Shown here piece by piece: positions 30,546 to 47,697 of a stretch of 64,000 nt of DNA. The position numbers and the translations under genes were made by a program. Numbering within the stretch: position 1 is the first letter of the stretch; each line of letters opens with the position of its first letter. Origin of the DNA: Candidatus Poribacteria bacterium (GTDB lineage: Bacteria; Poribacteria; WGA-4E; WGA-3G); the NCBI GenBank assembly GCA_965208635.1, contig OZ242349.1, positions 3,852,272 to 3,916,271 on the forward strand. Direction: 5' to 3'. Below the pieces are notes generated by a model that saw only the letters and a program-made list of their open reading frames with translations, was not told where the DNA came from and made no database searches.

Positions 30546-30684
30546 GCAATGTAATACATTGTCCCGCAAGTCCACACGTTGTCCTCGGATGCCACACGCG
30601 CATCCGTTCTGGTGCTACGGATTTCGTCTATCCCCAGACGAAATCCGGTGTTTCTTCAAGATTTGAGAAACGCACGCAACAGTT

Positions 30685-31377: not shown

Positions 31378-31394
31378 TGATGTGCGACTCGGTG

Positions 31395-31970
31395 CTACGG
31401 TTGTAATCTGTCTTTCAACGTTTGGAGGTATACTTTCTCGTCATCCGTCAATTTTGCATTTTCAAGTAAGAACGCAACGACCTGTGTCATTAACTTCGGG
31501 TTATAGGTATCCATCTGCTGTGGCATCAATTTGATAATTTCCCTGAAATCGCGCTGAGCGTCATCACCACGTCTGAAAAAGAATGGAAGATAGTAGCAGG
31601 TCGTACCGTGGATGAAAAGAGCTTCAATATCGTTTGAACTTTTCTCTAAGCCGCTATCCATGATTGCTAAACCGCGCTGCGCCCACTTGAGTTTGGTGTG
31701 TGGAAGAAATGCGTGTTTGCCTCTCAGCGCAATAAGTGAACCAATATAGACCTGCGTCCGCCCAGTGTACTTCGGTTCCATTTGTCTAATTCGTTTAAGC
31801 AACGCAATTGTCGGTTCAATCCGTTTCTCGTCTTTGATCGCGGCATAGAATTGCTTTCGAGCAACTTCCAGCATTTCTTCTACCGATTTCTCGGACGTAG
31901 CACCGTCAACTCGCAACGAGAAAATCAATGCTAATATCAAACTTATATATACACATCGGTTAGGTTTCAT
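31395..31970 (-). CDS. hypothetical secreted alpha-helical protein
   Basis: Signal peptide 'MKPNRCVYISLILALIFSL' with a likely start at 31970. No known motif. Lies inside the crt operon. Confidence 0.45.
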   Translation of the reverse strand: MKPNRCVYISLILALIFSLRVDGATSEKSVEEMLEVARKQFYAAIKDEKRIEPTIALLKRIRQMEPKYTGRTQVYIGSLIALRGKHAFLPHTKLKWAQRGLAIMDSGLEKSSNDIEALFIHGTTCYYLPFFFRRGDDAQRDFREIIKLMPQQMDTYNPKLMTQVVAFLLENAKLTDDEKVYLQTLKDRLQP

Positions 31971-32535
31971 CGCAAAAACTGATTTTTTGGGAGTGTTCAA
32001 CAACGCGATCTAACGCCAGTTTGAACCAGTGTGTGTAATTTTTCGGGTTCTCCCGAACATCCTGCTTCAACACCTGTATGTCCATCCACTTCCAATCATC
32101 AACTTCGTCCGGATTCGGAATAGGTTGACCACTATAGTGTCCAACAAAGACATAGTCGAGCTCGTGCTCAAATAAGCTATTGTCGAGTTGGATGTGGTAA
32201 ATAAAACTGAAAATCTCCTTAAGGTCACAATCGAAACCCATTTCCTCATGGAGGCGTCGCCGCGCCGCGTGATGATGATTTTCACCAGGTCGTGGGTGAC
32301 TACAACAGGTATTCGTCCACAATCCGCCGGAGTGATACTTCGTTTGTGCCCGTCTCTGAAGCAGCAATTCGCCTACAGCGTTAAAGACAAAGACCGAAAA
32401 GGCACTGTGTAATTTACCATCACGATGTGCTTGTATCTTTTCTTGAACGCCGATTTCTTTTCCCGTGTGATCGACGAGTATTACATGCTCTTGCATCGCT
32501 TTATATTTTTTCCTTTTCCTCGGTTGTGCTTTCAT
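31960..32535 (-). CDS. idi: isopentenyl-diphosphate delta-isomerase, type 1 (Nudix)
   Basis: 'HSAFSVFVFN..GELLLQRRAQTKYHSGGLWTNTCCSHP' and 'HEEMGF' are IDI-1 signatures. 191 aa. Confidence 0.8.
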   Translation of the reverse strand: MKAQPRKRKKYKAMQEHVILVDHTGKEIGVQEKIQAHRDGKLHSAFSVFVFNAVGELLLQRRAQTKYHSGGLWTNTCCSHPRPGENHHHAARRRLHEEMGFDCDLKEIFSFIYHIQLDNSLFEHELDYVFVGHYSGQPIPNPDEVDDWKWMDIQVLKQDVRENPKNYTHWFKLALDRVVEHSQKISFCDET

Positions 32536-33006
32536 ACCGATCTGCTGTCTAATCGCGATCGGTATGATTTTCCAGTTTAAATTGGGGACTGAATCACTAT
32601 GTATAATATTATTACATATTGTCTATATTATGTCAACAATAATTTAGACAATATCATAATTATTCGTATTTTGTATAGAAATTGTGTGGCGAAATAGAAT
32701 CGGATCGTTCAATCAAAATTCACTATAAAGTGGCGATTCTAAACGAGATTGAGATATTCTCTTTGTTAGGTTCTGAAACTTAGACAGATATAATTTATTG
32801 ACAAATAATAGACATAATGTTATATTAAATCGTAAGATTTAGATGTAAAACGTAAACGTTGACGATATGGTTTACAATTGCTAAATGAACCCGTGTGGTG
32901 ATATTATAATTCGACTGGAATTAGATTTTAATATACTGCTCATGATGTTAACTCAGCAACACCGATGAAACATTAAGCTCCAATAGGAAAATAAAAGAGG
33001 GAAAGG
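32536..33006. promoter_or_regulatory. 470-bp AT-rich bidirectional control region between the crt operon and the carH-like gene
   Basis: Sharp AT spike with direct repeats of 'ttgacaa-ataat-agaca(a)ta' type at about 32620-32660 and 32790-32830. Candidate CarH operator or promoters. Confidence 0.5.
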
Positions 33007-33978
33007 TTGATGGCGGATGAATATAAACACGGTATTAAAACCGTTGCCAGTCAGACAGGATTAACACAATTTATCATTCGGGCGTGGGAGAAACGGTACG
33101 ATGTGGTCACACCGCGGCGAACCGAAACGAATCGCCGCCTCTATTCCGATGCGGATATACTGCGTCTCACGTTGCTTCGTTTGGCGACTGAGGCGGGGCA
33201 TAACATTGGACGAATAGCAAAGTTGCCGAGTGAAGAACTTCTGGAGCTCATTGGAACAGGTGGGACAGTCGCACAGTTGCCTCGGATCGCGAAAGAGGTC
33301 GTCCCACAAGAAACATCGCTTCGTTTTTACATCGCTTCGTGCATCGCAGCGGTTAAGCAGTTTGAAGCACAAGCACTTGAGTCGACACTCTTCGCGGCAT
33401 CAGTCGCCTTTAGCCAGCCTATTTTCCTGGAAAAGTTGATTACACCGTTGATGCAGGAAGTTGGTGAACAGTGGAAGGCAGGAACTTTGCGGATTGCCCA
33501 CGAACATCTTACCGCGGCGGTTGTCCGGACACTGTTGGGAAATATTTGCCAAGGATCTGATATATCCACCTCAATGCCAAACTTAGTGGTCGCTACACCT
33601 CGGGGGCAGCTCCACGAAATCGGCGCATTGATTGCAGGAACGACTGCAGCCTCGCAAGGATGGCAAGTCACCTATCTCGGTCCCAATCTGCCAGCTGAAG
33701 AAATTGTAGGATGTGCAGTGCAAAATGGGGCAAAAGCAATTGGGTTGAGTATCGTTTATCCCACAGATGATCCACACTTGGTAAATGAATTGCGCAAACT
33801 TCGACGTGGAATCCAAGAGGGTGTTGCACTGTTTGTTGGAGGGAGCGGGGCAAGTGCTTATGATCCTGTCATTAGTGCTATCGGGGCAGTGAGAATCAAT
33901 GATATGTCGACTTTTCGGACCGAACTCGAAGCCTTGCGTGTGCAACAGAACGCCTCAGAAACGTCGGAGGAATCGTAG
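33007..33978 (+). CDS. MerR-family transcriptional regulator with C-terminal cobalamin-binding domain (CarH/LitR-like photoreceptor)
   Basis: N-terminal MerR HTH 'IRAWEKRYDVVTPRRTETNRRLYSDADILRL'. B12-binding signature 'GQLHEIGALI' (ExHxxG), 'SxL' and 'FVGGSGA'. 323 aa. Confidence 0.75.
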   Translation: MMADEYKHGIKTVASQTGLTQFIIRAWEKRYDVVTPRRTETNRRLYSDADILRLTLLRLATEAGHNIGRIAKLPSEELLELIGTGGTVAQLPRIAKEVVPQETSLRFYIASCIAAVKQFEAQALESTLFAASVAFSQPIFLEKLITPLMQEVGEQWKAGTLRIAHEHLTAAVVRTLLGNICQGSDISTSMPNLVVATPRGQLHEIGALIAGTTAASQGWQVTYLGPNLPAEEIVGCAVQNGAKAIGLSIVYPTDDPHLVNELRKLRRGIQEGVALFVGGSGASAYDPVISAIGAVRINDMSTFRTELEALRVQQNASETSEES

Positions 33979-34092
33979 CGGAGAGACTACCTTGGTTCAA
34001 ATTGCCAGTTCTCGATCATCGAACAAGAGTTGTGTGGTAACAGAAACGACTTCGTTACGCTCGCGTCTTTAACCAATAACTGATAACCGAAA

Positions 34093-34109
34093 GGATTTCG
34101 CAGAAATCC
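34093..34109. terminator. small hairpin ggatttc-gca-gaaatcc in a family-C repeat between convergent genes
   Basis: 7-bp stem located between the carH-like stop (33978) and the GH29-like stop (34135). Confidence 0.3.
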
Positions 34110-34134
34110 ATACCGAGAACCATTCTGCCAATGA

Positions 34135-36066
34135 CTATTCCCCTCGAATCGCTTGTCGTAAGGTTCTCATCTGCTCAAGTGTTGCAGGTGAGACTTTTCC
34201 ATCCTGAGTAATCCCCATGTTCATTGTAATTACCAACTTCTGGGCAATACAGATCTGCACATAATCAATAAGCCGCTGAGTGGCAAATATGGGTGGCGCA
34301 ATATCGGTCTCTGGATATCCATGCTGCCAAGGATCGTCAAGAAAGATCATACCGTGTGGTTGTAATCCACTTGCGCTGCCATCTGCGGCAAAGAAACTTG
34401 CTGGTGGATTTACGAGAGCACCGCCAAACTCACCACCGTAGTACTCTTGAAATTCAGTCGTTTTAGGGAGAATCCAACTGTTCCAAGCGACAATACGGTC
34501 AGGATTCCCAGCTTTGGTCGCTTCATACAATTCTTCAAACGGTTGGAGCGGATACCGATCATCAAACCAGTATCCCGCAACCTTTTTGCCGTATCGGTGT
34601 CCCATCTCGGTAAGAATATCGCGTTCAATTCTGAAAAATTCCGACTTGTCTGGACTTAAAAACCCAGTGGCTTTCATCCACTCTGTATCTCCAACGCCAT
34701 GATGGAAATACAGAATAAGGGGTATATCATGTTTTTGCAGCGCGTCAGCCATCTCTCCAATTAGATCGCGTTCGCAAATACGTTCCGGTATAACCGCTTT
34801 GATCGATTTCAGCGGAGCAGGAAAATGCATAATTCCGTGGACAGCAGTGAAAATGACGTAGCCCGCCCCAGTTTCACGCACCATATCGGCGAAAGTATCG
34901 ATATCAAAAGCGTTCACCGCTTCTGGATAGGATTTTTGTGGACCCCGTAGCGGCTGTGTCGTTGTTGACCAGTGGAACATCACGCCATATTTCGCCTCGA
35001 CGAACCAATCGGTACTCGCTCGTATCTTTTGAGCCTTTTTCCTTGAAGCAATCGTTGCCTTTGCCGCGGTGGGTGAAATCAGTTCAAGCGAATGGACTTT
35101 TACGTTTTCTGTAGAGTTTGCCTCTCCGATGAGACGCAGCGTAATTGGACTTTCACCTTCGGGAACGTGCAATGTCTCCTGAAGCGGTACCCGTTCAAAA
35201 TTCTGCGAATCCCCTGCCCATCCTGTCGTTTGGCGGACTGTCCAAGTAATTTTGCCTTGTCCTGTGGTAATCTCGAACGTTGAACCTATTGCATCAGCAT
35301 CAGCAGTGTAGGTTAGCGCAATTTCATAATCAGAAGGCACCCGGAGTTTCACCTTCCATGAAAGTGAAGCGGATGGTTTGTTCCAACCCTCAATCCAGTC
35401 CTGTGCCTGCAAATGGGCAAGACCGCCATCTGTCTTGGCGCTGTCCCCAAAAAGATAAATAACCGACGAAGGATCTGCTTCAACCAACTGCGGTTTCTTA
35501 AGCGTAGCGGGATCCCCGTCAATATCAAGAACGACGATGTCGTCAACACCGTTTTGGTATTCCTCCGGGACCACGATCAAAAGTCCCCATGGATGCTGTC
35601 TCACAATGCCCCACGAAGCACCATCTGCTGTAGGATGTTCCAGAATCCACGCGTTCTTCACCACCCGATCGGTGATGGCTGGAAGGGTGATATTGTTCTT
35701 TCCCTCCCAAGAAAGCACATGAACGTAGACTCTGCCATCCTTGTAGGTTGTGACGTATTGGTCGGTAGGTTTAAAGGGACCGCCGCGAGTGTCGATAATC
35801 GATTCCCCGTTCTCCTTAATCCACTCTTGAATCATTTCGTTCGCTCCAGTGAATCTCGATGTTTTTTGGCTATTCGACAATGGATTGACATTGATCTCTG
35901 AGTCGCTGCCCACTGCACGCACCATATCTACAATCAACGCTTTGGAGGTTCCTTGATTATGCATAATTTCCTCTTGTGTGTGGGCAATAAAGACCAAGCA
36001 GCTGAGCGCAAGTAAAATTGCAAAAAACGAACTTAGCATGAAACTTGCCTGATTTTCCCAAACCAC
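34135..36066 (-). CDS. secreted multi-domain glycosidase, C-terminal GH29 alpha-L-fucosidase-like domain
   Basis: Signal peptide. 'AKYGVMFHWSTT...AGYVIFTAVHGIMHFP...YWFDD' resembles the GH29 catalytic core. 643 aa. Confidence 0.45.
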   Translation of the reverse strand: MVWENQASFMLSSFFAILLALSCLVFIAHTQEEIMHNQGTSKALIVDMVRAVGSDSEINVNPLSNSQKTSRFTGANEMIQEWIKENGESIIDTRGGPFKPTDQYVTTYKDGRVYVHVLSWEGKNNITLPAITDRVVKNAWILEHPTADGASWGIVRQHPWGLLIVVPEEYQNGVDDIVVLDIDGDPATLKKPQLVEADPSSVIYLFGDSAKTDGGLAHLQAQDWIEGWNKPSASLSWKVKLRVPSDYEIALTYTADADAIGSTFEITTGQGKITWTVRQTTGWAGDSQNFERVPLQETLHVPEGESPITLRLIGEANSTENVKVHSLELISPTAAKATIASRKKAQKIRASTDWFVEAKYGVMFHWSTTTQPLRGPQKSYPEAVNAFDIDTFADMVRETGAGYVIFTAVHGIMHFPAPLKSIKAVIPERICERDLIGEMADALQKHDIPLILYFHHGVGDTEWMKATGFLSPDKSEFFRIERDILTEMGHRYGKKVAGYWFDDRYPLQPFEELYEATKAGNPDRIVAWNSWILPKTTEFQEYYGGEFGGALVNPPASFFAADGSASGLQPHGMIFLDDPWQHGYPETDIAPPIFATQRLIDYVQICIAQKLVITMNMGITQDGKVSPATLEQMRTLRQAIRGE

Positions 36067-36120
36067 TGCGATGAATATCCTTTATCGTGGATGCGTGTTT
36101 TCCAACGGACGTTTTTCGTT

Positions 36121-37173
36121 TCATTGAATCAGATCTGCCACACACCGAAAGCCGATCCAGACGGTATTGTCGGGCACCGATTTTTTCAAAGTTGGTTTCA
36201 CTTGTGGTTTCTGTTCCTGATTTTGTTTTTTCTTCTCTATAGGGATGTTCTTATCCAAAACAGGTTTCTTCAAGCCTGAATATTCGACTGACTGCGGGAA
36301 CCCAGTCGCTGTAGGAGAGAGTTTTAGACGGCGGGACAGTCGTAGGTGCTGAAGATAACTTGACCATCCACTGCCTCTTAATACTCGTTCAGTTCCCGTT
36401 TCTGGACCCTTTGGATTGTCCGGAGCAGAATCTGCATAATAACTGTCACTATACCAATCCGCACACCATTCCCAAACGTTCCCCGTCATATCATATAATC
36501 CGTAGCCGTTAGCGTTATAACTCCCGACCGGTGCTGTATATAAATAACCGTCATCAGCCTGTTCTCCGCCAACGGAACCGGTAAAATTGCAGTCTGTTCC
36601 TTCGGGGGGCTGATTTCCCCAAACGTACCGTTTCCCCACTAACCCGCCTCGTGCTGCGTACTCCCATTCGGCTTCGGTGGGTAGCCGTTTTCCCGCCCAC
36701 TGGGCATAGGCTTCGGCATCGTTAAACGTGATACCTACTACGGGGTGATTGTCGGTGGGTGTGGTGAAATCGACCAACTGCTGCACGCCTTTTTGTGCGA
36801 GTACAATCGCCTTTTCTGCTATCCAATTAGGTGTTTGCTCCGGTAAAGTTCCGTGGACTGTCTCTTTTAGAAAACGTTTATATTGTCCAATTGTCACTTC
36901 ATATCGATCCATATAAAAAGCGTCTAACTCTACTTGGTGGACAGGGAGTTCATCTGCCGTGCCTTCATCGAAATGGTCCCCCATTTCAAAAGAACCTGCA
37001 GGGAGCAAAACCATCGAGGCACCATCCTTCTCCGAAATAATCACGCGAAACGGCATCCCATCAACGACTTCGGTTTGGTTTATCTCAGGTTGTTCTTCAA
37101 CCGTCTCATCTTCACCACAACCCGCTAAGACAATCCCGATCAATAGACTGTATATTAATTTTCTCATAACCAA
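36121..37173 (-). CDS. formylglycine-generating-enzyme (FGE/SUMF1) domain lipoprotein
   Basis: Lipobox 'LAGCG', 'RVLRGSGWSS', 'WEWCADWY'. 350 aa. Confidence 0.7.
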   Translation of the reverse strand: MVMRKLIYSLLIGIVLAGCGEDETVEEQPEINQTEVVDGMPFRVIISEKDGASMVLLPAGSFEMGDHFDEGTADELPVHQVELDAFYMDRYEVTIGQYKRFLKETVHGTLPEQTPNWIAEKAIVLAQKGVQQLVDFTTPTDNHPVVGITFNDAEAYAQWAGKRLPTEAEWEYAARGGLVGKRYVWGNQPPEGTDCNFTGSVGGEQADDGYLYTAPVGSYNANGYGLYDMTGNVWEWCADWYSDSYYADSAPDNPKGPETGTERVLRGSGWSSYLQHLRLSRRLKLSPTATGFPQSVEYSGLKKPVLDKNIPIEKKKQNQEQKPQVKPTLKKSVPDNTVWIGFRCVADLIQ

Positions 37174-37296
37174 TTTTCATCTCCTGAGGTAGATCGAAGC
37201 ACCTAAACCGATAAAGATAAGGATAAATGCAGCAAGGTTCCAATAGATTCTATTATGTTTGCTCATCGGTTTCTTCTTCAGGTTGATGATTATTTA

Positions 37297-37406
37297 GGGC
37301 TTACGCAATATTCATAGAAATCGCGCGGTTATCAACCCATGATGGGATGTAATTGCGTCGTGAACTTGACTCACGAAGAAATTGTATGGGACTTACGCAA
37401 GATTCA
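37297..37406. promoter_or_regulatory. two direct repeats GGG(C/A)CTTACGCAA(T/G)ATTCAT spaced 90 bp apart, upstream of the FGE gene
   Basis: 19-20-nt near-identical repeats at 37297-37315 and 37387-37406. Confidence 0.35.
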
Positions 37407-37487
37407 TTCGTTTGCTTGAGAGGCTCTTCGGCTTTGAAACGTCGGGGAGAGTTCTATCCTTTCATCCTTCCATATCTGTTTTAAGAT

Positions 37488-39506
37488 TTAAAATTTCCCA
37501 AAAACACGCACAAAAATTTCCATGTAGTTCTGATCGTTCACATCCCCGATGGCGCGCTGATCTATGTAACGTGCGCCGATATGCAGAAACATTCGCTTCT
37601 CGTAAGCGACAAAACTCTTTTCCATTTCAGCCAACAACGCCTGACGAACAAAATCGTTATCATTGTCAAGCATATCGTTGAACAGGAGAATTTGACCACC
37701 ACCGGTGAGTTTGATGGTTTTCGTGAATTGATAGACGACCTTCAGGATAAGAGCCGAAGCCATATCCCGTACATTCGCACGTTCAATTTCGCGTAATCGA
37801 AATCGACGAGAGACATCCCTACCCTCAATTTCCCCAGCTAAGGACAGATATTCAAGCCGATCCTCCGCCATTCGGAAGCCGTTGCGAACGGTGGTTTTGA
37901 ACATCGGACTGATTTCCAGCGACTTGGAGGGACGCAAACGGTACAGGGTTTTGAAGATGCCGACCTCGTAATGTTTATTGTCCTTTTCGAAATCGTAGTC
38001 GTATTGAATTTTGGCGCGAGCTGTCGTGACCATCCGTTCAATTCCCAAATATTCATACGTGAGCTTGGCAGTGTTAATCAGGTCGTTCTGCATCAGCAAT
38101 GGATCTCTGCGCCGTTTTTCAACTTCGGTGCCGCCATCAATATAGAAAAACTGTACTCCCCCATCCCTCTCCAGTTTCCGAATTTCCGGCTGCGCCCGAT
38201 ACAATGCTTCCTCCGTTCCACTCAGAAATCCAGCATAATACCACGTCTCATCAGGAATCCGATCTTTCACCAATTTCAATTCGTTCTCGAAAACAAGTGA
38301 AGAGGCACGGGCAAGTTCTTTCCGATAAATCAGATTGGTAAACGCTTTTGTTGAAGATGGCGTATTCCTAAGTCTGAGATTTTCTTCGATCTGCAATCCA
38401 AGATCTAAATCAACGACACTTGCCTGATGAGTCAGTTTACGGTTCATGAAAAGACGTATCCCTTGCAGTCCAACATCGAATTCGTAATTCGGATCCTGAT
38501 CGTTCTCTTCCTCATCCCGGATGCCGTTGTTGTTTAGATCGCTTTCGTCTAAGAAATCCTCATCGACATCGAAAAGTAGAATGTCATCCTCGTAGTCGAA
38601 GATACCGTTGTTATTTTTATCAAGGTCACCGGGAATAATTAGGGAGGGTGGGTCGAGCGGTGTGTTATCGGAGTAGCGATCCTGGTCATCGTTATCGCCG
38701 ACGGATCGGGAGGCGTCAAACCGTGGACCAACGCGATACGCTTCCGCCTGAAAGATCGTATCCCCAACGGTTTGGAATGCTTTGAGAACTGTTGTCGTTG
38801 CATCGAAACGTGAACTTAAGTTTTTCTGCAACGCACTCTTCGGTGTAACAGCCAATTCTGCTTTTACACCGTAGTTGGTGAAATTGGTTTCCAGATCTAC
38901 CGCCCATACCGGTGTCTCTCGGAAGTACCAGGAGAGTCCTAATTGGGATCTACCAAACTTTGTAACTTCACGCAAACCGATACCAGATTTTTCGCCTCTT
39001 CCTTCACGTCCATTCAGTCGATTGAGCAAACCGGGCACCATTAGGATTGTCCAATCGGTGCGATTCGAGCGGACCTCCCAACGAACACCGCTTAGGTCGA
39101 TCTGATCGAAGGTGAATTTCGTGAAGGTCGTCGGGACCTCTCCGAGACTCAAAATATTTTTCACACTGCCTGCGGTTTCCTCAATTACCATGACACTATG
39201 GAAGCCGCGCCGAAAGAGACGGTCAAAATCGAAACTGTCTTGCCTAACACGCTCCTCCTCTGTATCCGCGAGGAAGTTCCGTCTATTTGTGAAATCGTAT
39301 TCGACACGTCCGGATAGGAATAACTTACCAAATAGGCTGTACGCATCCTCTGCCTCAGCGCGGAATGCGAGAGAGCAACAGAGTAAGACCTTCAACAGCA
39401 AAAGCAGACTTTTAACAGGAAAACGAGCACGGGTTCGGGACTTTTGGTTATCTGTCTTTGTTTCCATAAATTCGCTTTCACATAGTTGCCAATTGCCAGC
39501 CATCAA
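37488..39506 (-). CDS. outer-membrane beta-barrel protein with Asp-rich calcium-binding (thrombospondin-3-like) loops
   Basis: Signal peptide from the internal Met 'MKTDNQK...'. 'DKNNNGIFDYEDD...DLNNNGIRDEEENDQD'. C-terminal aromatic '...RVFGKF'. 672 aa. Confidence 0.5.
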   Translation of the reverse strand: MMAGNWQLCESEFMETKTDNQKSRTRARFPVKSLLLLLKVLLCCSLAFRAEAEDAYSLFGKLFLSGRVEYDFTNRRNFLADTEEERVRQDSFDFDRLFRRGFHSVMVIEETAGSVKNILSLGEVPTTFTKFTFDQIDLSGVRWEVRSNRTDWTILMVPGLLNRLNGREGRGEKSGIGLREVTKFGRSQLGLSWYFRETPVWAVDLETNFTNYGVKAELAVTPKSALQKNLSSRFDATTTVLKAFQTVGDTIFQAEAYRVGPRFDASRSVGDNDDQDRYSDNTPLDPPSLIIPGDLDKNNNGIFDYEDDILLFDVDEDFLDESDLNNNGIRDEEENDQDPNYEFDVGLQGIRLFMNRKLTHQASVVDLDLGLQIEENLRLRNTPSSTKAFTNLIYRKELARASSLVFENELKLVKDRIPDETWYYAGFLSGTEEALYRAQPEIRKLERDGGVQFFYIDGGTEVEKRRRDPLLMQNDLINTAKLTYEYLGIERMVTTARAKIQYDYDFEKDNKHYEVGIFKTLYRLRPSKSLEISPMFKTTVRNGFRMAEDRLEYLSLAGEIEGRDVSRRFRLREIERANVRDMASALILKVVYQFTKTIKLTGGGQILLFNDMLDNDNDFVRQALLAEMEKSFVAYEKRMFLHIGARYIDQRAIGDVNDQNYMEIFVRVFGKF

Positions 39507-39576
39507 GGACCAAAAACATCCGTAAAATGATAATCTCTTAACTGAAAACCGATAACTGAAAACTGATAACCATCCT

Positions 39577-42500
39577 TCACCTCAAAATATCCTCGGGTCC
39601 ATGGGATTCTGTGAAGGTTGTCCAGATACCTGTGCGTTTATCGTAACGGCTCAATCCACGATAGGTTCCGAACCAGACGAACGGACTATCTACAGCCATC
39701 GAAAGGATACCGTTATGTGCTAAGCCGTCCTCTCGGGTGTAAGTCGTCCAACTATTCGTCAACTGATCAAACCGACTGACCCCAGCATTGTAGGTGCCAA
39801 TCCAGACTTCAGTGCCATCAACACCTATAGAGGTAACTTTGTTGCTGGCAAGTCCATCTGCTGTCGTATAGTCAGCCCAAACCTCTGTCTTTTCGTTGTA
39901 GAGTGTCACACCGCGGTCGCTGCCAAACCAGACATTGTCGCCAGCAATCACGATACAACTCACTTCATCACTCGCAAGTCCATCTTCCACTGTTATCGTC
40001 TTCCAGATATCCCGACCGATGTCATATTGACTGACACCCCTGCGTGTCCCGACCCAGACGTGTTTCTTACTTGCCGTGATACACCAAATTTGATCGGTAA
40101 CCAACGATTCAGCAAACTCTTTAGACACAGCAGAAGGCTGGATTTCAGTGCCCGATGTGTAGGTAATCCATGCATTGCGATCATCCGCTGTGCGGGGGTA
40201 CTTTCCGATCCCAGAATTAGTGCCAACCCAGATACTATCGGCATCGCTACTCACAGAAGTTATATTGTTGGCGGGCAGTCCATGCTCAGTTTTGTACTGA
40301 TCCCACCGCAGGGCTATCTTATCAAAGCGATTCGCCCCGTCGCGTGTCCCAACCCAGACGTATTGGTCATCGACCATAATAGAACTCACAACGTCATCGG
40401 AGAGGCAGTCTTTCTTTTTCCGTCTATGTCGGTGCCAGTGCCCTCCATGGGTTTCTATGTTTTCGGAGCCACCTTCCTGCCGATAATTCTTCCATGTCCC
40501 CAGGATCTTGTCGTAGCGTGACATACCTTTATCCGTACCGACCCAGACGAAACGCTCATCTGTATCTACCGTCCGAATAGTGCGTCCAACGAGGGTCGGT
40601 AGTGCCGTCAACGGGGTCCAAGATTCTTTCTGTTTGTCATAACGGGAAAGTCCACGCAACGTACCCACCCATACATAGTCCTCATCCACTGCGAGCCCAT
40701 ACTCACCCACATGGTTATGGAGCAGCCCTTTGATATCTCTAAACCTTGCCCAAGTCCCAGAGGCAAAATGAAAGCGTCGAAGCCCATCGTTGGGGGCAGC
40801 TAACCACAGATAATCGTCATCGGCTGCCAGCTCAAGCGTTCCACGTCCGGATCTGATCGTCGTCCATTCCTTTGTGCGCCTGTCGTATCGGGTAACACCT
40901 GCATCCTCCCAAGGTCTGTAGAGTATCCATACATCTTTTTCTGTAGCGATAATACGTCTAATCGTCCTTGAAGCCAGCACGTCATTCGTCGAAAATGTCG
41001 TCCATTTCTTTGTCTTTTTATCGTATCGCGACAACGGACGGTTGCTATCTCTATCCCATTCCGAGCGCGCAACCCAGATGAAATCATCATCTACAGTAAT
41101 CCACTCCGCGCCTCTGCCTGCCAATCCGTCTCTCGGTCCAAAATCTTTCCATTCACCCGTGATTTCATTGTACTGAGTCAGGGTCCGCCCGGATCCAAAC
41201 CAGACGTTCGGTCCATCGACCCCAAGTGCATTCAATCGCTCAATCTGAGTCCCTTCATCAGGAGCGACCACATCCCATGTCCCAGTCGCTTTACTATAAT
41301 GGCTCAATTCCAAACCTATCATCGGGATGACCCAAACACTCTGTTCACTCACAGCAATCTTGTCTACATCGTTTGTAGAAAGACCATCCTCTGTCGTAAA
41401 ATGTTGCCATGTATCCGAAGTTTTATCGTAACGGAGAACCCCATAGTCCGTTGTGAACCAGACTGCATCCGTGTCAATATGCGTCCAACGGATAAGTGTC
41501 ATGGCTCTTTTCTGCGTAGACTGCAGAATGTCTACGCGCGTGAAACGCCGCCATGTCTCTGTTGAACGATGAAACCGGACAAGAGCACCGTTCGGCGAAG
41601 CCCCCCAGCTATTGAGCCAGATGTAATCCCCATCAAACTTGATGTTTGAGACCAATGTTTCAAGGAACGGCTCCCGTACCGGCCGAGATTGATGTAGAAC
41701 CTCTCTTCCATTTTGTGAGTCATATTCGACGAGTCCTGTATCTGTCGCCAACCAAAGTGTTCCGTCTGCATCACACAGAATGTCGCGAATGTTATACGGC
41801 ACATTTGAGAGAGAATTCCAAGAATCAGAAGCAATCGTGTAACTTCCCAGTCCCTGTGGTGTGCCGATCCAGAGAATCCCATCTTGAAAGGCAAGTGCGG
41901 TGACATTCGGCGACGGCAATTGGTCATTAAAGGACAGTGGGACCCAACGCTGACGGGTCTTGTCATATCTTGCAAGACCGCGGCGTGTTCCCGCCCAAAG
42001 TGTCTGTTCTCGGGGATCGGTTTGTAACTCTGAATCAGTGGAAAGTAGCACATTAACGTACGGATTCGGAAGACCATCGGCAACACGGTGCATCTGCTTA
42101 TCGACGATTGCGTATTGCAAAACACCTTCCGCGCCGCCAAACCAGACTTTCTCATCGTGAGCAAGCACGGCTAATATAAGCGGATTTTTCGGCGTGTCCG
42201 GTGGTGTCAGTTGTGTCCATTCCTGCGCTGTTGTATCGTACACGGCAGGACCGAAACTTGTACCAACCCAGACCCGGTGATTCTGTGATGCAGTGCCAGT
42301 ATCAACTGATGTCACAAAAGCTTCGCCTTGTGTCTGTGTTCGAGGTGGGACATGAAATGTCCACTCTTCCTCTAAATATGCTCGCGTGCCAAGCCCTCGA
42401 TCGCTCCCAATCCAGACCTGGGCATCGCCATTGTTTAGGATTTCGTCAGTGGTGTCCTGTTCCGATTCAGAAGGTTGAGACGTAAAATTGATTGACGTAA

Positions 42501-43851
42501 TATAGGGAGTCGGCAGCCCATCTTCCTTGGAAATGATTTCCCAGTTACGTGTTTGAGGAGAGTAAACCGAAATTCCGGCAACTGTTGCTAACCAAAGGTT
42601 TCCATCGGGATCACGTGTTAGATAGCGAACATCGTTATCGGCGAGAAAATCGGCTTGTTTATATATTGTCCACTCGCCGCTCACTTTATCAAATCGGCTC
42701 ACACCATCCTCTTTGCTCGCAAACCAGACATCATTACCTTGTGTGGTAATCCAACTGATATGATTACTCGCCAATCCATCTGCCTTGGTATAATGCACCC
42801 ATGTGTTGACAGGCTTAATGAATCGATGGACACCCGCATTGGCAGTTCCGAACCAGACCTGGAACCCATCTGCACGAATACAGGAGATAATATTGCTTTT
42901 CAACAGATCTGTTTTCGTATATGTTTTGATGAACGTCTGGTCAACTTGATTGTACTGACTGACACCCTCCTTCTGCGTGCCAAACCAAACACTATCGTCG
43001 TCCACCGCAATCGTAGCGATTTCGCTGTCTATCAAACCATCTGATTTCGTATAGTTATTCCAAGAATCGGTGTCTCGATGGTAACGACTTACCCCACCTC
43101 TGCTGAACCTCGGATCTTCATCCCATCCATGTGGATCTGGGTTTATTTCTCTACCGGTGCCGACCCAAACATACTCCGGCTCAACGGCGATGGTTGTAAT
43201 TACTTTGCTGACTAAGCCGTCCTTCCGGGTACGCACCGCCCAACTGTCAATCGTTTTATCGTAACGATTCAATCCCTCGGATGTCCCAAACCACACGTAG
43301 TTCCCGTCCACCGCAATTGAGGAAACTTGGTCACTTGCTAATCCATCGATGGTTCGGAAGGTCGTAAAAGTGTTTGTTTGCATATCGTAGCGGCTTACAC
43401 CTTCATCCGTGGCAAACCAGACCCATTGCCCATCAACCGCGACGGCATTCACCATATCGTTCGACAACCCATCTTCCATCGTATAATGGATCCATTTATC
43501 CTGCTGGCGGTCCCAGCGAGAAACACCCCGCGCCGTTGCAATCCATACATTGTCTAAATCTGCTGCAATACAATTGACCTCGTTGCTGACGAGCGTTCGT
43601 TCTATGGGCCACGCCTTCGCAAGCTCCGTGCCTGTTTTGGAGCCATCATGAGGAAGACCAGATTGTGGATCGCTGGTTACCAATGGACCGCACCCGACAA
43701 TCATAAAGAAGGGCAGCAGTAAGGTACATGCTATTGAAGCAACGCACAAAGGTTGGCATTTGAATTCAGCAATCCAAGACTTACTTCTATCTGCTCGCTT
43801 CATTGTTTCCACCGTTTCCCTTTCACCCAAGTGTGAATCTCGCAATCTCAA
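39577..43851 (-). CDS. giant lipoprotein made of ~25 two-component-regulator-propeller (Y_Y_Y/Reg_prop) repeats, with no kinase or output domain
   Basis: Lipobox 'MIVGCG'. Reiterated 'VW(I/F)GT..G(L/V)SRYD..T..W' blades throughout. Lys/His-rich insert 'HGGHWHRHRRKKKD'. 1424 aa. Confidence 0.6.
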   Translation of the reverse strand: MRLRDSHLGERETVETMKRADRSKSWIAEFKCQPLCVASIACTLLLPFFMIVGCGPLVTSDPQSGLPHDGSKTGTELAKAWPIERTLVSNEVNCIAADLDNVWIATARGVSRWDRQQDKWIHYTMEDGLSNDMVNAVAVDGQWVWFATDEGVSRYDMQTNTFTTFRTIDGLASDQVSSIAVDGNYVWFGTSEGLNRYDKTIDSWAVRTRKDGLVSKVITTIAVEPEYVWVGTGREINPDPHGWDEDPRFSRGGVSRYHRDTDSWNNYTKSDGLIDSEIATIAVDDDSVWFGTQKEGVSQYNQVDQTFIKTYTKTDLLKSNIISCIRADGFQVWFGTANAGVHRFIKPVNTWVHYTKADGLASNHISWITTQGNDVWFASKEDGVSRFDKVSGEWTIYKQADFLADNDVRYLTRDPDGNLWLATVAGISVYSPQTRNWEIISKEDGLPTPYITSINFTSQPSESEQDTTDEILNNGDAQVWIGSDRGLGTRAYLEEEWTFHVPPRTQTQGEAFVTSVDTGTASQNHRVWVGTSFGPAVYDTTAQEWTQLTPPDTPKNPLILAVLAHDEKVWFGGAEGVLQYAIVDKQMHRVADGLPNPYVNVLLSTDSELQTDPREQTLWAGTRRGLARYDKTRQRWVPLSFNDQLPSPNVTALAFQDGILWIGTPQGLGSYTIASDSWNSLSNVPYNIRDILCDADGTLWLATDTGLVEYDSQNGREVLHQSRPVREPFLETLVSNIKFDGDYIWLNSWGASPNGALVRFHRSTETWRRFTRVDILQSTQKRAMTLIRWTHIDTDAVWFTTDYGVLRYDKTSDTWQHFTTEDGLSTNDVDKIAVSEQSVWVIPMIGLELSHYSKATGTWDVVAPDEGTQIERLNALGVDGPNVWFGSGRTLTQYNEITGEWKDFGPRDGLAGRGAEWITVDDDFIWVARSEWDRDSNRPLSRYDKKTKKWTTFSTNDVLASRTIRRIIATEKDVWILYRPWEDAGVTRYDRRTKEWTTIRSGRGTLELAADDDYLWLAAPNDGLRRFHFASGTWARFRDIKGLLHNHVGEYGLAVDEDYVWVGTLRGLSRYDKQKESWTPLTALPTLVGRTIRTVDTDERFVWVGTDKGMSRYDKILGTWKNYRQEGGSENIETHGGHWHRHRRKKKDCLSDDVVSSIMVDDQYVWVGTRDGANRFDKIALRWDQYKTEHGLPANNITSVSSDADSIWVGTNSGIGKYPRTADDRNAWITYTSGTEIQPSAVSKEFAESLVTDQIWCITASKKHVWVGTRRGVSQYDIGRDIWKTITVEDGLASDEVSCIVIAGDNVWFGSDRGVTLYNEKTEVWADYTTADGLASNKVTSIGVDGTEVWIGTYNAGVSRFDQLTNSWTTYTREDGLAHNGILSMAVDSPFVWFGTYRGLSRYDKRTGIWTTFTESHGPEDILR

Positions 43852-44201
43852 GACTGTTTTCGTTAGTTTGTATTATTATGCCATTAAAACACTGCATAAG
43901 CAAGAAAAGCGTAATTACAGTCGCGCACATTCATTTTCAATTATCGTGATTCGGAGATCGTTTTATGAATTGTTATTGTTGCTGATCTTTACATGAAACG
44001 CTATACAGGTATCTATAACTATGTGACGTATATTATTGGAGCACCCCTTAAAAAAGTTACACAAATTTGACGTCGCCTCTAAGCAATTTTGGAATATCTG
44101 CCCATTAAAAGTATTTGACAAAAATCCCCAAATGCCCTACAGTGGACCCCAAAAGAGAGAACGAGTACTTTAAACTGACTACACCGATGGAGATATTCAT
44201 C

Positions 44202-45227
44202 ATGCCTTATGGAGACAACGACTGGCTCGCTTTAACCGAAGAACCCACGCTGGAACCAGAGTTACCAATCTGTGACCCACACCACCATTTTTGGGATTTC
44301 CGAACCGAGCGTATCCCTTACCAACGGTATCTACTCCACGAGTTGATCGCAGATATTAATAGTGGCCACAACGTGCGTTCTACTGTGTTCGTTGAGGCGA
44401 GAGCCATGTACCGCGCCGATGGACCCGAAGAGATGCGTCCTGTCGGTGAAGTCGAATTTGTGCAAGGACTCGCAGCTGCGAGCGCGAGTGGGTTATATGG
44501 CGAAAGTCGTGCCGCCGCTGCAATTGTCGGACACGCGAACCTGAACTTGGGGGAGCGCGTCGAGCCGGTTCTGGAAGCCTTACAAGCCGCGAGTCCGAAT
44601 CGGTTTCGGGGTATCCGTCATTCTGTTACTTGGGATCCACACCCAGAAATAGCAGGGGCTTCCGCTTACAGAACGGAAAGACAACTCGCGCGTGAGGATT
44701 TCCGGGCTGGGGCACGTGTGCTGGCAAGCATGGGAATGTCTTTTGAGGCATGGATGTACGCGCCACAACTATCGGAACTCGCTGATTTCGCGAGAGCCAC
44801 CCCCGATCTGACGATTATTTCAAACCATATCGGTGGTTTGCTGCGGGACGGTCCCTATGGGGGCAGAGATGATGAAGTGTTGGCGAATTGGCGGAGCGGT
44901 ATCGCTGCGATAGCCGCTTGTCCCAATGTTCACATGAAACTCGGAGGTATTGGAATGCCGCGTACCGGTTTCGATTGGCATGAACGGGAACAACCGATCG
45001 GATCTGAAGAGTTAGCCGAGTCTATGGCACCTTTCATGAATTACTGTATTGAGCAGTTCGGTCCGGAGCGATGCATGTTTGAAAGCAACTTCCCAGTTGA
45101 TAAAGTCTCGTTCTCTTACAACGTGATGTACAATGCGTTCAAACGGTTGTCATCTGGCTACTCAGATGACGAACGCGCATTGCTATTCCACGACACCGCC
45201 GCTCGCGTATATCGCGTAGATGTTTAA
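44202..45227 (+). CDS. amidohydrolase-2 family metal-dependent TIM-barrel hydrolase
   Basis: 'CDPHHHFWDF' is an N-terminal PF04909 signature. Start placed at the ATG that has a GGAG SD. The ORF track starts at 44115. Confidence 0.65.
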   Translation: MPYGDNDWLALTEEPTLEPELPICDPHHHFWDFRTERIPYQRYLLHELIADINSGHNVRSTVFVEARAMYRADGPEEMRPVGEVEFVQGLAAASASGLYGESRAAAAIVGHANLNLGERVEPVLEALQAASPNRFRGIRHSVTWDPHPEIAGASAYRTERQLAREDFRAGARVLASMGMSFEAWMYAPQLSELADFARATPDLTIISNHIGGLLRDGPYGGRDDEVLANWRSGIAAIAACPNVHMKLGGIGMPRTGFDWHEREQPIGSEELAESMAPFMNYCIEQFGPERCMFESNFPVDKVSFSYNVMYNAFKRLSSGYSDDERALLFHDTAARVYRVDV

Positions 45228-45288: not shown

Positions 45289-47697
45289 TTATTCGCCTTG
45301 AATCAGCTTGAATTTATGCGCCGCTTCCTCTACCCCGACAAATCGACTGTAAATCGCAACACGGCTCAACTTACCTTCCCAGTTCCTACCGCCACTCGCC
45401 TCGTCACCGAAAAGCAACGGATAGCGTTCCCAGTTGCTGAAATCCCCTTGCGTCCCGTTACTCACGTGGACAAGTTCACCATCGATATAGCAATAGACGT
45501 TCCGGTCAAAATAACTGACGATGACATGGATCGGTTTTCCCGATTCAATCTTACCGAAATGAAACTCACCGCCTAACGCATTCGTCCCGGTCCGCGGTGT
45601 GCGGATTCTCACTGCGAAACGGCTGCCATCTTGCCCAAAGGTAAAGTTCCGATGGGTAGCGTCATTCGAGAACGAAATAATCCGCGCGGGACCGTCCTGA
45701 TCCAAGTTATCCGTCGTAACGAGACACTCAAGCGTCAATTGGTTACTCCTCTGACATGCCTCCAGAAGTTTATCGTTCACGTTTTTGGTAAGGAATGCAC
45801 CACCAATGAGATCCATCTGGCCATCTTCACCGACTTTCGCATTACCAAGCGGTTCAATCTCCCCGTTATCCTCAAGCGCGCCATGCCAGAGAAAAACAAG
45901 CCCATCACGCGAGCCGGGGAATTTCGTGTGCGTTCCGATATCAGTCGGTGCCTCCGGTGATACATGGATTGCGAGGGATGTCGTTGCTGTGTCTCCCTCC
46001 GGGTCCATCACCGTGAGTGTTACGATGTATTGTCCGAGACTTTCGTAGACATGCGTCGGATTCGATTCAGTGGACGTTGTTCCGTCTCCGAAAGTCCAGT
46101 GGTGCGCCAGATCCCCTGCCGCTGAGAAATTCACTATAAGCGGGGCACTGCCTTGAAGGACATCGGCGGACGCTTTCGCCTCCGGACGGAGTTTCTCACC
46201 TGGCGAGTATGGTGTAAAGCGATACGCAACACCGTTATACGGCGAAGCGAATGTATGTTCTCCGGGGTGTGCCGTCCCAACAGGGATAATCTTCATGTTC
46301 CATGTATCCACGCGATCGACTTTATAGGGTTGTTCTCCTTCCAAGTCCAGTGTTATTGTTTGTGGTTCGGTTGTGTATGCGAGATAATACTCCCCCTGTT
46401 TGGCAAGGATATATCGTCCTGTTTCATCGCCAATCGGTTCAAGCGTATCAAAGGCTGGCGCGCTTGCTATGAAGTCTTTGAGATACGCGATCCGCGGTGG
46501 ACTCTCACCGCAGAGCACGCCACCTTTCGCCCACCACAGTAGATCTTCTGGGTGTTTGTATGTTTCTCCGTGTCCGACATAGCAACCGGAAACAGTGCCT
46601 GCCCAAAAGTGCTGGACCATCTCTTCCGCGGTGATATTTCCCCATCCCTGTGGAATATCGCCTTCGTAGCGACACTCGTCATAGATAACAGGTTTTCCGT
46701 ATTGCGTGCGATAGCGGATACCTTGTGCCATGTTAGACGTTTGGATACTGGTATGTGTTACCCACGGTTTGCTGTGGTCATACCAACGTCTACCATTGTG
46801 AATGCCACGTAAACGCTGATATGGGTCACGATCTCGAATAATCTGGAAGAACCGATCCCAGTCGGATTCCTCTTTCGCAGGCATAAAGTCGTACTCATTC
46901 GCAAGGGACCACCAGACGTTACGGAACGCCGCCAGTCGCGCAACGGCGTAGCGGATGTACCGATCATCGTTCTCGGCATCCATGTACTCAAAACCCCATC
47001 GGTCATAGGTATGGAAGAGAATGATGTCCGCTTCAATACCGAGTTCCAAGAGGTCTCGCACCCGTTGTTCAAAATGCTGCCAGAATTCAGGGTTGAATCT
47101 GGTGAAATCCCAATCCTTCAGCGGTTTCCCTTCAAATGGATAGTAGATCGGATCGTTTTTATTGTAAACGTAGTCCTTTGGGAAGATGCACATCCGCATT
47201 TTGTTGAAGGGTGCCTTCGTAAGGGTTTCGAGCGTCTGTTTTTCCATCGCTTCCCCCTGATGTGCCCAGGCATAACAGGTCGTTCCGAATTGATGGTAGG
47301 GTCTGCCATCGGCATAGCGGAGATAGAAATCTTTATAGACGTGAACCGGTCCGTGATTTCCCTCGGATGGCGCAACGCACGTAAACTGTCCTGTCTTACC
47401 GTTGAGTTCAGCGATGTTACTCTTTGTGGTATACGTCCATTCACCAACTGCATCGGGCATAAATCGAATTTTGTAAATCCCGTTTCCGTCGTAGAATCCC
47501 TGAGGCTCAAAAATCCGATCGTTCTGTTTAAATTCTGCTGTCAATTCAATCTCAGTGAACGGATTACCTGTGTCCGGTCCATTCAAAGTTACTTCATATA
47601 TTCCCCAACGTTCAACCATATTCACCTCTAAGTCTTGTGCATTCGCGAGCGAGAACGCAACCGCAAAAATCACTATAGGTAAGATCTTTCTCGTCAT
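45289..47697 (-). CDS. secreted glycoside-hydrolase-like protein (DUF4038-type TIM barrel) with PKD and LamG-like domains
   Basis: Signal peptide. 'WWSLANEYDF', PKD domain 'WTFGDGTTSTESNPTHVYESLGQYIVTLTVMD', C-terminal concanavalin-like region. 802 aa. Confidence 0.45.
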   Translation of the reverse strand: MTRKILPIVIFAVAFSLANAQDLEVNMVERWGIYEVTLNGPDTGNPFTEIELTAEFKQNDRIFEPQGFYDGNGIYKIRFMPDAVGEWTYTTKSNIAELNGKTGQFTCVAPSEGNHGPVHVYKDFYLRYADGRPYHQFGTTCYAWAHQGEAMEKQTLETLTKAPFNKMRMCIFPKDYVYNKNDPIYYPFEGKPLKDWDFTRFNPEFWQHFEQRVRDLLELGIEADIILFHTYDRWGFEYMDAENDDRYIRYAVARLAAFRNVWWSLANEYDFMPAKEESDWDRFFQIIRDRDPYQRLRGIHNGRRWYDHSKPWVTHTSIQTSNMAQGIRYRTQYGKPVIYDECRYEGDIPQGWGNITAEEMVQHFWAGTVSGCYVGHGETYKHPEDLLWWAKGGVLCGESPPRIAYLKDFIASAPAFDTLEPIGDETGRYILAKQGEYYLAYTTEPQTITLDLEGEQPYKVDRVDTWNMKIIPVGTAHPGEHTFASPYNGVAYRFTPYSPGEKLRPEAKASADVLQGSAPLIVNFSAAGDLAHHWTFGDGTTSTESNPTHVYESLGQYIVTLTVMDPEGDTATTSLAIHVSPEAPTDIGTHTKFPGSRDGLVFLWHGALEDNGEIEPLGNAKVGEDGQMDLIGGAFLTKNVNDKLLEACQRSNQLTLECLVTTDNLDQDGPARIISFSNDATHRNFTFGQDGSRFAVRIRTPRTGTNALGGEFHFGKIESGKPIHVIVSYFDRNVYCYIDGELVHVSNGTQGDFSNWERYPLLFGDEASGGRNWEGKLSRVAIYSRFVGVEEAAHKFKLIQGE

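Follow-up and report, generated by a model that had tools for sequence, protein, structure and literature searches.

What does a giant beta-propeller lipoprotein do in the envelope of a sponge symbiont, and which of the genes around it belong to the same system? The question is raised by a stretch of 64,000 nucleotides from Candidatus Poribacteria bacterium (GenBank assembly GCA_965208635.1, contig OZ242349.1, positions 3,852,272 to 3,916,271 of the forward strand), which was analysed as a whole and is here called the window. Four of its genes encode a propeller protein, an outer-membrane barrel, a lipoprotein with the fold of the formylglycine-generating enzyme (FGE) and a protein resembling the fucosidases of glycoside hydrolase family 29 (GH29). 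An original prediction made from the sequence had described these four as a co-oriented set that captures or processes sulfated or fucosylated glycans, in analogy to a polysaccharide utilization locus (PUL). All four open reading frames (ORFs) are indeed present on the minus strand. The best-supported statement is narrower than that prediction: propeller and barrel are a conserved two-gene outer-membrane module, and only the order of these two genes is conserved across the phylum, whereas the four genes do not hold together as one unit. Poribacteria are abundant, uncultivated sponge symbionts whose cell-surface biology has been inferred almost wholly from genomes. In this setting the pair is a candidate core envelope machine, combining the largest array of Reg_prop blades met in the analysis with a barrel that has no relative in Pfam, NCBIfam or the PDB.

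The propeller and barrel pair

The comparison covered 81 Poribacteria loci, namely 80 genome assemblies with one representative per species and one metagenome contig. The barrel gene occurs in every one of them, at 72-99% identity across the phylum. In 76 of the 81 loci the propeller gene lies directly upstream of it on the same strand, mostly with gaps below 350 bp, and several of the five loci without a detected propeller are truncated contigs. All other genes of the neighbourhood vary among the loci. A divergent clade retains the pairing with a barrel that is about 73% identical and a propeller that is only about 35% identical and is encoded as two to three tandem paralogues of 28-29 blades (found upstream of the barrel in loci L001, L076 and L080). 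Because the barrel is a single orthologue with 72-99% identity across the phylum, it looks more like a core envelope component than like part of a substrate-specific PUL. Searches retrieved 203 close homologues of the barrel, and those that bear a database name are all labelled hypothetical protein. A literature search found no published description of the propeller-barrel pair or of the barrel family, and nothing relevant emerged from the literature on Poribacteria propellers or Reg_prop proteins, their outer membrane and type IX secretion system (T9SS), or PDB entry 9pnj. The two genes and their main features are as follows.

39577-43851, minus strand: Reg_prop propeller lipoprotein; ORF of 1424 aa, with a probable start at M17 (43803) that gives 1408 aa
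43690-43803, minus strand: putative signal peptide and lipobox ...FFMIVG-C54, then the tether GPLxT(T)DPQSG; from sequence reading and orthologue conservation
40408-40449, minus strand: His/Lys-rich insert HGGHWHRHRRKKKD at the junction of blades 23/24, residue 1135; from an alignment of propellers
37488-39506, minus strand: predicted outer-membrane beta-barrel of an un-annotated family; ORF of 672 aa, with a probable start at M14 (39467) that gives 659 aa
38469-38729, minus strand: long Asp/Asn-rich loop of the barrel, residues 247-333 of the 659-aa protein; from motifs and conservation

The propeller protein had been predicted to be built from Y_Y_Y/Reg_prop repeats. The Reg_prop part of this label is confirmed by Pfam PF07494, which scores 115.6 bits and thus far exceeds its cut-off of 20.4. 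The Y_Y_Y part is not, since PF07495 has no match at E<=0.01 and the protein stops right after blade 29. This number of blades was obtained with a regular expression for the blade motif and with a blade hidden Markov model (HMM) built from the protein itself, and it replaces the earlier count of about 25. No other Reg_prop array encountered in the analysis is as large. In an AlphaFold2 (AF2) model of residues 54-760 (predicted local distance difference test score, pLDDT, 77), the blades are regular and four-stranded, the linker after blade 8 has low confidence and the 34 residues past the lipobox cysteine form a disordered N-terminal tether. The blades probably fold into four propellers of 8+7+7+7, a split taken solely from the linker positions and the strand pattern of the AF2 model. 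Blade-to-blade similarity has no 7- or 14-blade periodicity, and good preservation is confined to the N- and C-terminal blades.

The prediction that this protein has no kinase or response-regulator domain holds as well. Over its 1424 aa, Pfam and NCBIfam detect propeller families only and no kinase, HisKA, HATPase_c, receiver, AraC/HTH or transmembrane-output domain. M17 is the likely start, and the lipobox I-V-G-C54 and the following GPLxT(T)DPQSG are kept in nearly all orthologues. By the lipobox pattern [LVI][ASTVI][GAS]C, which its sequence matches, the protein is predicted to be a lipoprotein, in agreement with the original reading. The Lys/His-rich insert noticed earlier is equally real. 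Located at residue 1135, its core T-H-x-G-H-W-H-x-H occurs in 58 of 83 propellers and is missing from the paralogues of the divergent clade; it is a plausible candidate for a metal-binding site.

The PDB sequence relatives of the propeller are solely periplasmic sensor domains of Bacteroides hybrid two-component systems (HTCS), namely BT4663 (4a2l, E 1.5e-32), BT3049 (3v9f) and BT4673 (3va6/3ott). The same three proteins are retrieved by Foldseek with the AF2 model, BT4663 being the best match (4a2l, E 3e-26), and PorZ (5m11) follows at E 4e-17. HTCS sensors serve in oligosaccharide recognition, and PorZ likewise binds glycans. The only characterised homologues of the propeller, HTCS sensors in both sequence and fold and PorZ among the fold matches, are glycan binders. 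The HTCS sensors share the tandem Reg_prop propellers with the protein studied here, but they have 14 blades and continue into Y_Y_Y, a transmembrane helix, HisKA, HATPase, REC and AraC domains, whereas the Poribacteria protein consists of 29 blades and a lipobox.

The partner protein likely starts at M14 (39467) and then has 659 aa, the length of its orthologues. Its N-terminus is a signal peptide (...SLAFRAEA/ED), and its C-terminus has an aromatic last residue (...VRVFGKF). At E<=0.01 it matches zero families in Pfam and NCBIfam, and neither the single sequence nor a 97-sequence profile finds a significant match in the PDB. With an alignment of 97 sequences, AF2 produced a model with about 28-29 beta strands (pLDDT 79.5, predicted TM-score 0.75). 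Outer-membrane barrels are among its best Foldseek matches, with SlpA on top (8ae1, E 8e-9, TM-score about 0.26), accompanied by LptD, FadL/TodX-type channels and MtrB. Structure prediction thereby bears out the barrel that the original reading had proposed, and the 659-aa protein is modelled as an outer-membrane beta-barrel of approximately 28 strands. An identity as LptD, BamA or TonB-dependent receptor was considered and rejected, as no such HMM matches. Pfam and NCBIfam detect neither a TonB plug (PF07715) nor TonB_dep_Rec (PF00593) at E<=0.01, the NCBIfam models of PorV, PorQ and PorP do not match, and no SLH, OmpA-like or peptidoglycan-binding domain is found by Pfam or NCBIfam in either member of the pair.

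Three of the structural matches deserve comparison. The barrels of LptD-LptE (8h1r, 5iv9) and MtrB-MtrA/MtrC (6r2q) are, like the one described here, very large. LptD and MtrB form barrels of 26 strands that function only with a partner encoded alongside. The Poribacteria barrel differs from them in having no OstA/LptD signature, no cytochromes and TM-scores of 0.2-0.3, and in place of a plug-sized partner it has a propeller array of 150 kDa. SlpA of Deinococcus (8ae1; PF21620), the top Foldseek match, is also approached by weak PF21620 matches in a few family members, but the barrel of the window has no SLH domain, no coiled-coil stalk and no PF21620 match, and its TM-score with SlpA is about 0.26.

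One loop of the barrel, the 87 residues 247-333, lacks regular strands in the model, with a pLDDT of 78-87 over its motifs. It contains two 12-residue EF-hand-like loops (38505-38621), defined by acidic or amide ligands at positions 1, 3, 5, 9 and 12 and a glycine at position 6: DKNNNGIFDYED (D283-K-N-N-N-G-I-F-D-Y-E-D) and DLNNNGIRDEEE (D310-L-N-N-N-G-I-R-D-E-E-E). The EF-hand pattern D-x-N-x-N-G-x-x-D-x-x-[DE] is thus fitted twice. Among 97 sequences of the barrel family from several phyla, D310 and N314 are invariant, and D258, N259, D260, D261, D263, D267, D291, D302, N312, N313, D318, E321 and D323 are conserved to at least 90%. The loop had been described as Asp-rich and of thrombospondin type. 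The first description is correct, while the second finds no backing in Pfam, where the isolated loop matches no family even at E<=10, TSP3 (PF02412) included. The PDB profile search returned only troponin C, at an insignificant E of 3.2. The loop is presumably a Ca2+-binding extracellular loop or plug.

The components of the pair are therefore of known kinds, since Reg_prop propellers, outer-membrane barrels and lipoprotein-barrel pairs all have precedents. The architecture is new: 29 blades with a lipid anchor and no output domain are combined with an un-annotated barrel family that bears a conserved double EF-hand-like loop.

Neighbours of the pair

Two further genes on the minus strand follow the barrel in the window, and two more lie upstream of the propeller.

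36121-37173, minus strand: FGE-fold lipoprotein of 350 aa with lipobox LAGC (PF03781)
34135-36066, minus strand: secreted GH29-like (alpha-L-fucosidase-like) protein of 643 aa (PF01120 and PDB 9pnj)
44115-45227, plus strand: Amidohydro_2 amidohydrolase, divergent, between the GH140-like gene and the propeller gene (Pfam)
45289-47697, minus strand: glycoside hydrolase with DUF5060, apiosidase-like (GH140-like), PKD and LamG domains (Pfam)

The first of these genes had been taken to encode a lipoprotein with an FGE domain. Fold and lipobox (...VLAG-C) are as expected, with 237.7 bits for PF03781 in Pfam and an alignment to 6muj at E 4.8e-56. The enzymatic capacity that the name implies is another matter. 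Formylglycine generation depends on two Cu(I)-binding active-site cysteines, and where FGE (SUMF1/FGE; 6muj, 2q17) has S-Y-L-C-H-D-S-Y-C, the Poribacteria protein has S-Y-L-Q-H-L-R-L-S, so that the pair is replaced by glutamine and serine. The Cys-less motif is common to all seven orthologues found. Because the Cu-binding cysteines are replaced, the protein should be unable to generate formylglycine according to the known FGE mechanism and is, as far as its sequence can tell, catalytically dead in this respect. The automatic FGE annotation is corrected accordingly and provides no evidence for sulfatase maturation. The protein also has a Lys-rich insertion of some 45 residues ahead of its C-terminal GFRCV. 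Among NCBIfam models the best match is GldK/PorK, likewise a non-catalytic FGE-fold lipoprotein, but the GldK model TIGR03525 reaches 146.3 bits, below its cut-off of 350. Roles as true FGE or as GldK were thus both rejected for the 350-aa lipoprotein, the former for its replaced cysteines and the latter for its score.

The FGE-fold gene is a lineage-specific, movable neighbour outside the conserved core. A segment of 1.4 kb comprising the gene and a 314-bp spacer (36069-37486) is exactly absent from genomes that are about 89% identical at the nucleotide level. The gene is missing at this position in loci L004, L005, L007 and L009, where the GH29-like gene comes directly after the barrel. Elsewhere the orthologue is found 5-9 kb away; seven loci have one within 10 kb of the pair. 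Gene and domain scans found no sulfatase encoded across the whole 64-kb window. With a dead FGE-fold protein, a mobile gene and a sulfatase-free window, the sulfate arm of the proposed system falls away.

Homology to fucosidases, by contrast, is supported for the second gene, although its Pfam match is partial. PF01120 scores 55.7 bits against a cut-off of 25.2, and the match is restricted to residues 385-508 and profile positions 92-216, about one third of the model. Residues 203-642 align to PDB 9pnj, an 'alpha-L-fucosidase', at E 1e-50. Its catalytic part (340-642) matches 9pnj and ends in a similar strand-helix motif, and its W-F-D motif aligns with the W-F-D of 9eu4 at the expected position of the nucleophile. 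Unlike GH29 enzymes such as 9pnj, the protein has an extra N-terminal module, of which residues 37-143 resemble the C-terminal part of 9eu4 (residues 275-381). The resulting domain order is unusual and points to a permutation or partial duplication. The GH29-like gene is a recurrent but movable neighbour of the pair. It is found within 10 kb in 36 of the 81 loci, always co-oriented, at positions from immediately upstream of the propeller to 9 kb downstream; in the remaining 45 it is not within 10 kb.

Other genes recur at the pair with similar freedom. At least 27 of the 81 loci have a GH140-like hydrolase gene upstream in the same orientation; between it and the propeller there is often (33 loci) an Amidohydro_2 gene that runs the opposite way. 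A gene for a BlaR1/M56-like membrane protein is co-oriented downstream in 35 of the 81 loci, in about half of these within roughly 600 bp of the barrel. Further recurrent co-oriented neighbours encode DUF1501 proteins (29 loci), a PQQ-type propeller (21) and a small LamG protein (11), and an amino-acid permease gene stands upstream in about ten loci. The GH140-like, GH29-like and LamG genes are always co-oriented with the pair where they recur beside it. The M56-like proteins measure 960-1320 aa, and in one copy (L030, 13392-17366) a lamin-tail domain is combined with a C-terminus resembling ExbD. DUF1501 and PQQ-type propeller genes often come after the M56-like gene; all three are absent from the window.

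Rfam and tRNA scans of the window returned no matches. A consensus scan for promoters and terminators in 33900-44200 gave counts of 18 and 12 against shuffled expectations of 12.9 and 9.9, which is near chance, and these counts were left out of the evidence on operon structure.

The barrel family and the role of the pair

A search of 1.84 billion representative proteins with the barrel gave only 108 matches. Two of them are full-length or nearly so (61% and 33% identity), and the rest are short fragments and collinear, very divergent proteins of 650-1150 aa without a Pfam family. This search yielded about 80 clusters at 50% identity. Another 81 members, found with a profile, belong to Latescibacterota, Fibrobacterota, Elusimicrobiota, Spirochaetota or unnamed metagenome bins; those with a source name are all called hypothetical. 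Pfam SlpA_C (PF21620) weakly matches a few members of this wider family and does not match the barrel of the window.

Ten genomic contexts of distant barrel relatives were inspected. Three of them (L082, L083 and L089) share an arrangement that opens with LacI, accompanied or not by genes for ABC sugar transport. After it stand the barrel gene, a PorV/PorQ-family barrel (128.6 bits in L083, cut-off 90) and then large discoidin or carbohydrate-binding module (CBM) proteins with T9SS-type tails, and glycosidases are encoded nearby. These PorV/PorQ-family barrels are located at 9780-10742 in L082, 15148-16641 in L083 and 12302-13237 in L089, directly after the barrel in L082 and L089. Discoidin/CBM proteins with CHU_C, FlgD_ig or Por_Secre_tail tails together with PorV/PorQ-family barrels occur in five contexts (L082, L083, L087, L089 and L090). 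L082, L083 and L089 are loci of Spirochaetota or Elusimicrobiota type, phyla for which T9SS-like sorting modules are not expected. In L085, L087 and L090 tailed discoidin proteins are encoded immediately upstream of the barrel, and the loci also contain giant TPR proteins and/or further barrel paralogues. The barrel of L084 has three lipoproteins of 755-766 aa after it, and L088 has an ECF sigma factor with FecR, ExbB/ExbD genes and a Reg_prop protein. The metagenome contig L086 carries three consecutive barrel paralogues (10001-18462), and sulfatases are found near the barrel in L083 and L086. A metagenome scan with P0151, a 1117-aa barrel paralogue of Poribacteria, yielded a single locus, too little for generalising: in L091 the genes immediately upstream of a 44%-identical relative (locus segment 6099-13010) are Wza-like (Poly_export/SLBB) and Wzc-like (Wzz/GNVR/AAA_31). 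This arrangement hints that some members of the family may act in polysaccharide export. A common theme of the contexts is that the large barrel is encoded beside very large envelope or surface proteins, and the themes are not uniform.

Which role, then, fits the Poribacteria pair? The reading preferred here, tentatively and as somewhat short of probable, is that the products of the two genes form an outer-membrane complex, with the barrel anchoring or displaying an array of propellers that binds a ligand, probably a glycan. The barrel would be the dedicated outer-membrane partner of the lipoprotein and would serve as anchor, display channel, housing or lumen partner, by analogy to LptD, MtrB, PorQ and PorP/SprF, which hold partner proteins. 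The tether GPLxTTDPQSG and about 35 disordered residues may contact or thread the barrel. The propeller array would be the working part and bind a ligand, most probably a carbohydrate; such a ligand is proposed because the HTCS and PorZ homologues bind glycans and because genes for glycosidases and lectin-like proteins recur beside the pair. Its source could be the sponge matrix, dissolved glycans or the cell's own envelope glycan, and it might be handed to the secreted GH140-like and GH29-like glycosidases and/or passed through the barrel. The FGE-fold lipoprotein and the GH29-like enzyme would be lineage-variable, non-obligatory neighbours. By analogy, a conserved barrel whose partner evolves fast and is duplicated recalls transport or anchor barrels that are conserved while their exposed partners bind ligands. 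If the propeller does bind host or dissolved glycans, the pair bears on how the symbiont feeds on or recognises the sponge matrix.

Several observations weigh against such a complex. The Foldseek TM-scores between the barrel and known barrels are low (0.2-0.3). Outside the Poribacteria no Reg_prop partner is adjacent to members of the barrel family, and the contexts of the family are heterogeneous, including those with TPR proteins and ExbBD and with Wza/Wzc (L091). The conserved core of the Poribacteria loci contains no inner-membrane transporter, no TonB box or plug and no regulator, the permease in about ten loci aside, and a role in uptake is therefore speculative. Moreover, the phylum-wide conservation of the barrel as a single locus fits a housekeeping role in the envelope at least equally well.

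A housekeeping or structural module of this kind, with a core barrel and the propeller as surface coat or adhesin (an 'eukaryote-like repeat' protein) for envelope architecture or sponge contact, is the strongest competitor, yet on balance unlikely. It would account for the fact that all 80 species-representative loci contain an orthologous barrel with 72-99% identity, for the variable flanks that provide no fixed metabolic context, and for a propeller that evolves faster and is duplicated, as would be expected of a protein that is exposed and under pressure to diversify. SlpA, an S-layer/outer-membrane protein of Deinococcus and the top fold match of the barrel, and the hits of a few family members to SlpA_C point in the same direction. 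The pair, however, has none of the SLH, OmpA-like or peptidoglycan-binding domains looked for, co-oriented glycosidase and LamG genes recur beside it, and the characterised Reg_prop homologues are ligand sensors, not structural proteins.

The preferred reading of the pair as a barrel with a displayed propeller array can be extended to the whole family, which would then be an undescribed group of barrels of about 28 strands with a double EF-hand-like loop, acting in Poribacteria, Latescibacterota, Fibrobacterota, Elusimicrobiota and Spirochaetota as anchors or translocons for adjacent giant surface proteins. The cargo would consist of T9SS-tailed proteins with a PorV/PorQ-like shuttle in some lineages, of large lipoproteins in Fibrobacterota and of the 29-blade, PorZ/HTCS-like lipoprotein in Poribacteria. 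This generalisation is speculative and more doubtful than the reading of the pair itself. If true, it would describe a new display route for very large surface proteins and, in sponge symbionts, the core of the host-glycan interface; an anchoring or exporting function of the family would apply to several poorly studied phyla.

The PUL-analogous system of four genes, in which the propeller binds glycans, the barrel imports them, the FGE-fold protein matures sulfatases and the GH29-like enzyme removes fucose, appears improbable. Co-orientation and short spacers in the window, the glycan ligands of those Reg_prop homologues whose ligands are known, the GH29-like gene within 10 kb in 36 of 81 loci and the Cys-less FGE orthologue within 10 kb in seven would agree with it, as would the distant barrel relatives in glycan loci with sulfatases near in L083 and L086. 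It is weakened by the conserved replacement of both cysteines in the FGE-fold protein, whose gene amounts to a 1.4-kb presence/absence difference among close relatives, by the sulfatase-free 64-kb window and by a GH29-like gene that takes several positions and is not within 10 kb in 45 of 81 loci. TonB-dependent features, SusD and a regulator are lacking as well. Like SusC/SusD PULs, the locus unites a barrel in the outer membrane with a surface lipoprotein and has glycoside hydrolases close by. It lacks a TonB-dependent receptor or plug, a SusD fold, a linked regulator and a fixed set of carbohydrate-active enzymes. Furthermore, the Poribacteria module is present once per locus and highly conserved, whereas PULs come in many substrate-specific copies. 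In functional terms, too, the locus does not behave as a PUL, given that only the pair is conserved, the carbohydrate-active enzymes vary in presence and position and the core holds neither regulator nor transporter. What survives of the original proposal is the surface pair with a loose link to a fucosidase; the sulfate arm and the SusC/SusD features do not.

A relation to the T9SS, with the propeller as a PorZ-like binder of glycans or lipopolysaccharide and the barrel as PorQ, PorP/SprF or a small translocon, seems just as improbable. In its favour, Pfam detects PorZ_N_b_propeller in the 1424-aa protein (40.9 bits, cut-off 27) and Foldseek retrieves PorZ (5m11, E 4e-17). Distant relatives have a PorV/PorQ-family barrel (L083, 128.6 bits against 90) after the barrel and cargo with T9SS sorting domains on its flanks, FlgD_ig-tailed proteins occur in Poribacteria (55244-57556 in the window and a C25 peptidase in L075), and the best NCBIfam match of the FGE-fold neighbour is GldK/PorK. 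Yet the NCBIfam equivalogs remain far below their cut-offs, with 74.1 bits against 260 for PorZ (NF052228) and 146 against 350 for GldK. Instead of a C-terminal sorting domain (Pfam finds no Por_Secre_tail, CHU_C or FlgD_ig match) the propeller carries a lipobox, and the barrel, roughly double the size of PorV, PorQ and PorP, matches none of them. The 64-kb window encodes neither T9SS core genes nor gldL, gldM or gldN. The PorZ-PorQ couple, a multi-propeller, glycan-binding surface protein held by an outer-membrane barrel, resembles the arrangement proposed for the pair. It differs in that PorZ has two propellers, a T9SS C-terminal domain and no lipid, and in that PorQ is a small PorV/PorQ-family barrel of about 335 residues in the NCBIfam model.

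Less probable still is a stand-alone sensor, in which propellers anchored in the outer membrane and facing the periplasm would relay an oligosaccharide signal to a separate transducer such as the BlaR1/M56-like protein. The nearest propeller homologues are sensor domains and the BlaR1/M56-like gene is co-oriented downstream in 35 of 81 loci, but this gene is missing from the window and from most loci, 29 blades go far beyond known sensors, the Y_Y_Y dimerisation domain is absent and the tight pairing with a barrel would be left unexplained. A functionless adjacency of two unrelated envelope genes is hardly credible when order, strand and spacing are kept in 76 of 81 loci while other flanks vary, and when the pairing is kept even at 35% propeller identity or after duplication.

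Other genes of the window

Downstream of the GH29-like gene the window contains a carotenoid cluster (23892-33978) with two CrtI-type desaturases, a phytoene synthase, a lycopene cyclase, a GT2 glycosyltransferase, an acyltransferase, Caroten_synth and a NUDIX protein. Beside it, at 33007-33978, a regulator with MerR and B12-binding domains is encoded, which is CarH-like and of the light-responsive type. Such a block follows the barrel at a distance of a few kb in about 13-14 related loci.

On the other side of the pair, three genes encode further repeat or lectin-type proteins. A 1009-aa protein with BNR/Sortilin-Vps10/PSII_BNR repeats (50233-53262) and a 260-aa LamG protein of lectin type (53995-54777) are envelope candidates, and a large, secreted-looking WD40 protein of 770 aa (55244-57556) has a C-terminal FlgD_ig, a type of tail that serves as T9SS sorting signal in other phyla. 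The same tail ends a likewise secreted-looking 2074-aa C25 (gingipain-like) peptidase that is encoded near the barrel in a locus of the divergent clade (L075, 13919-20143). Finally, two ORFs of about 200 aa overlap almost completely at 17670-18284 (minus strand) and 17703-18293 (plus strand). Only the plus-strand ORF has a match (Aconitase_C, small subunit), and the minus-strand ORF is probably spurious.

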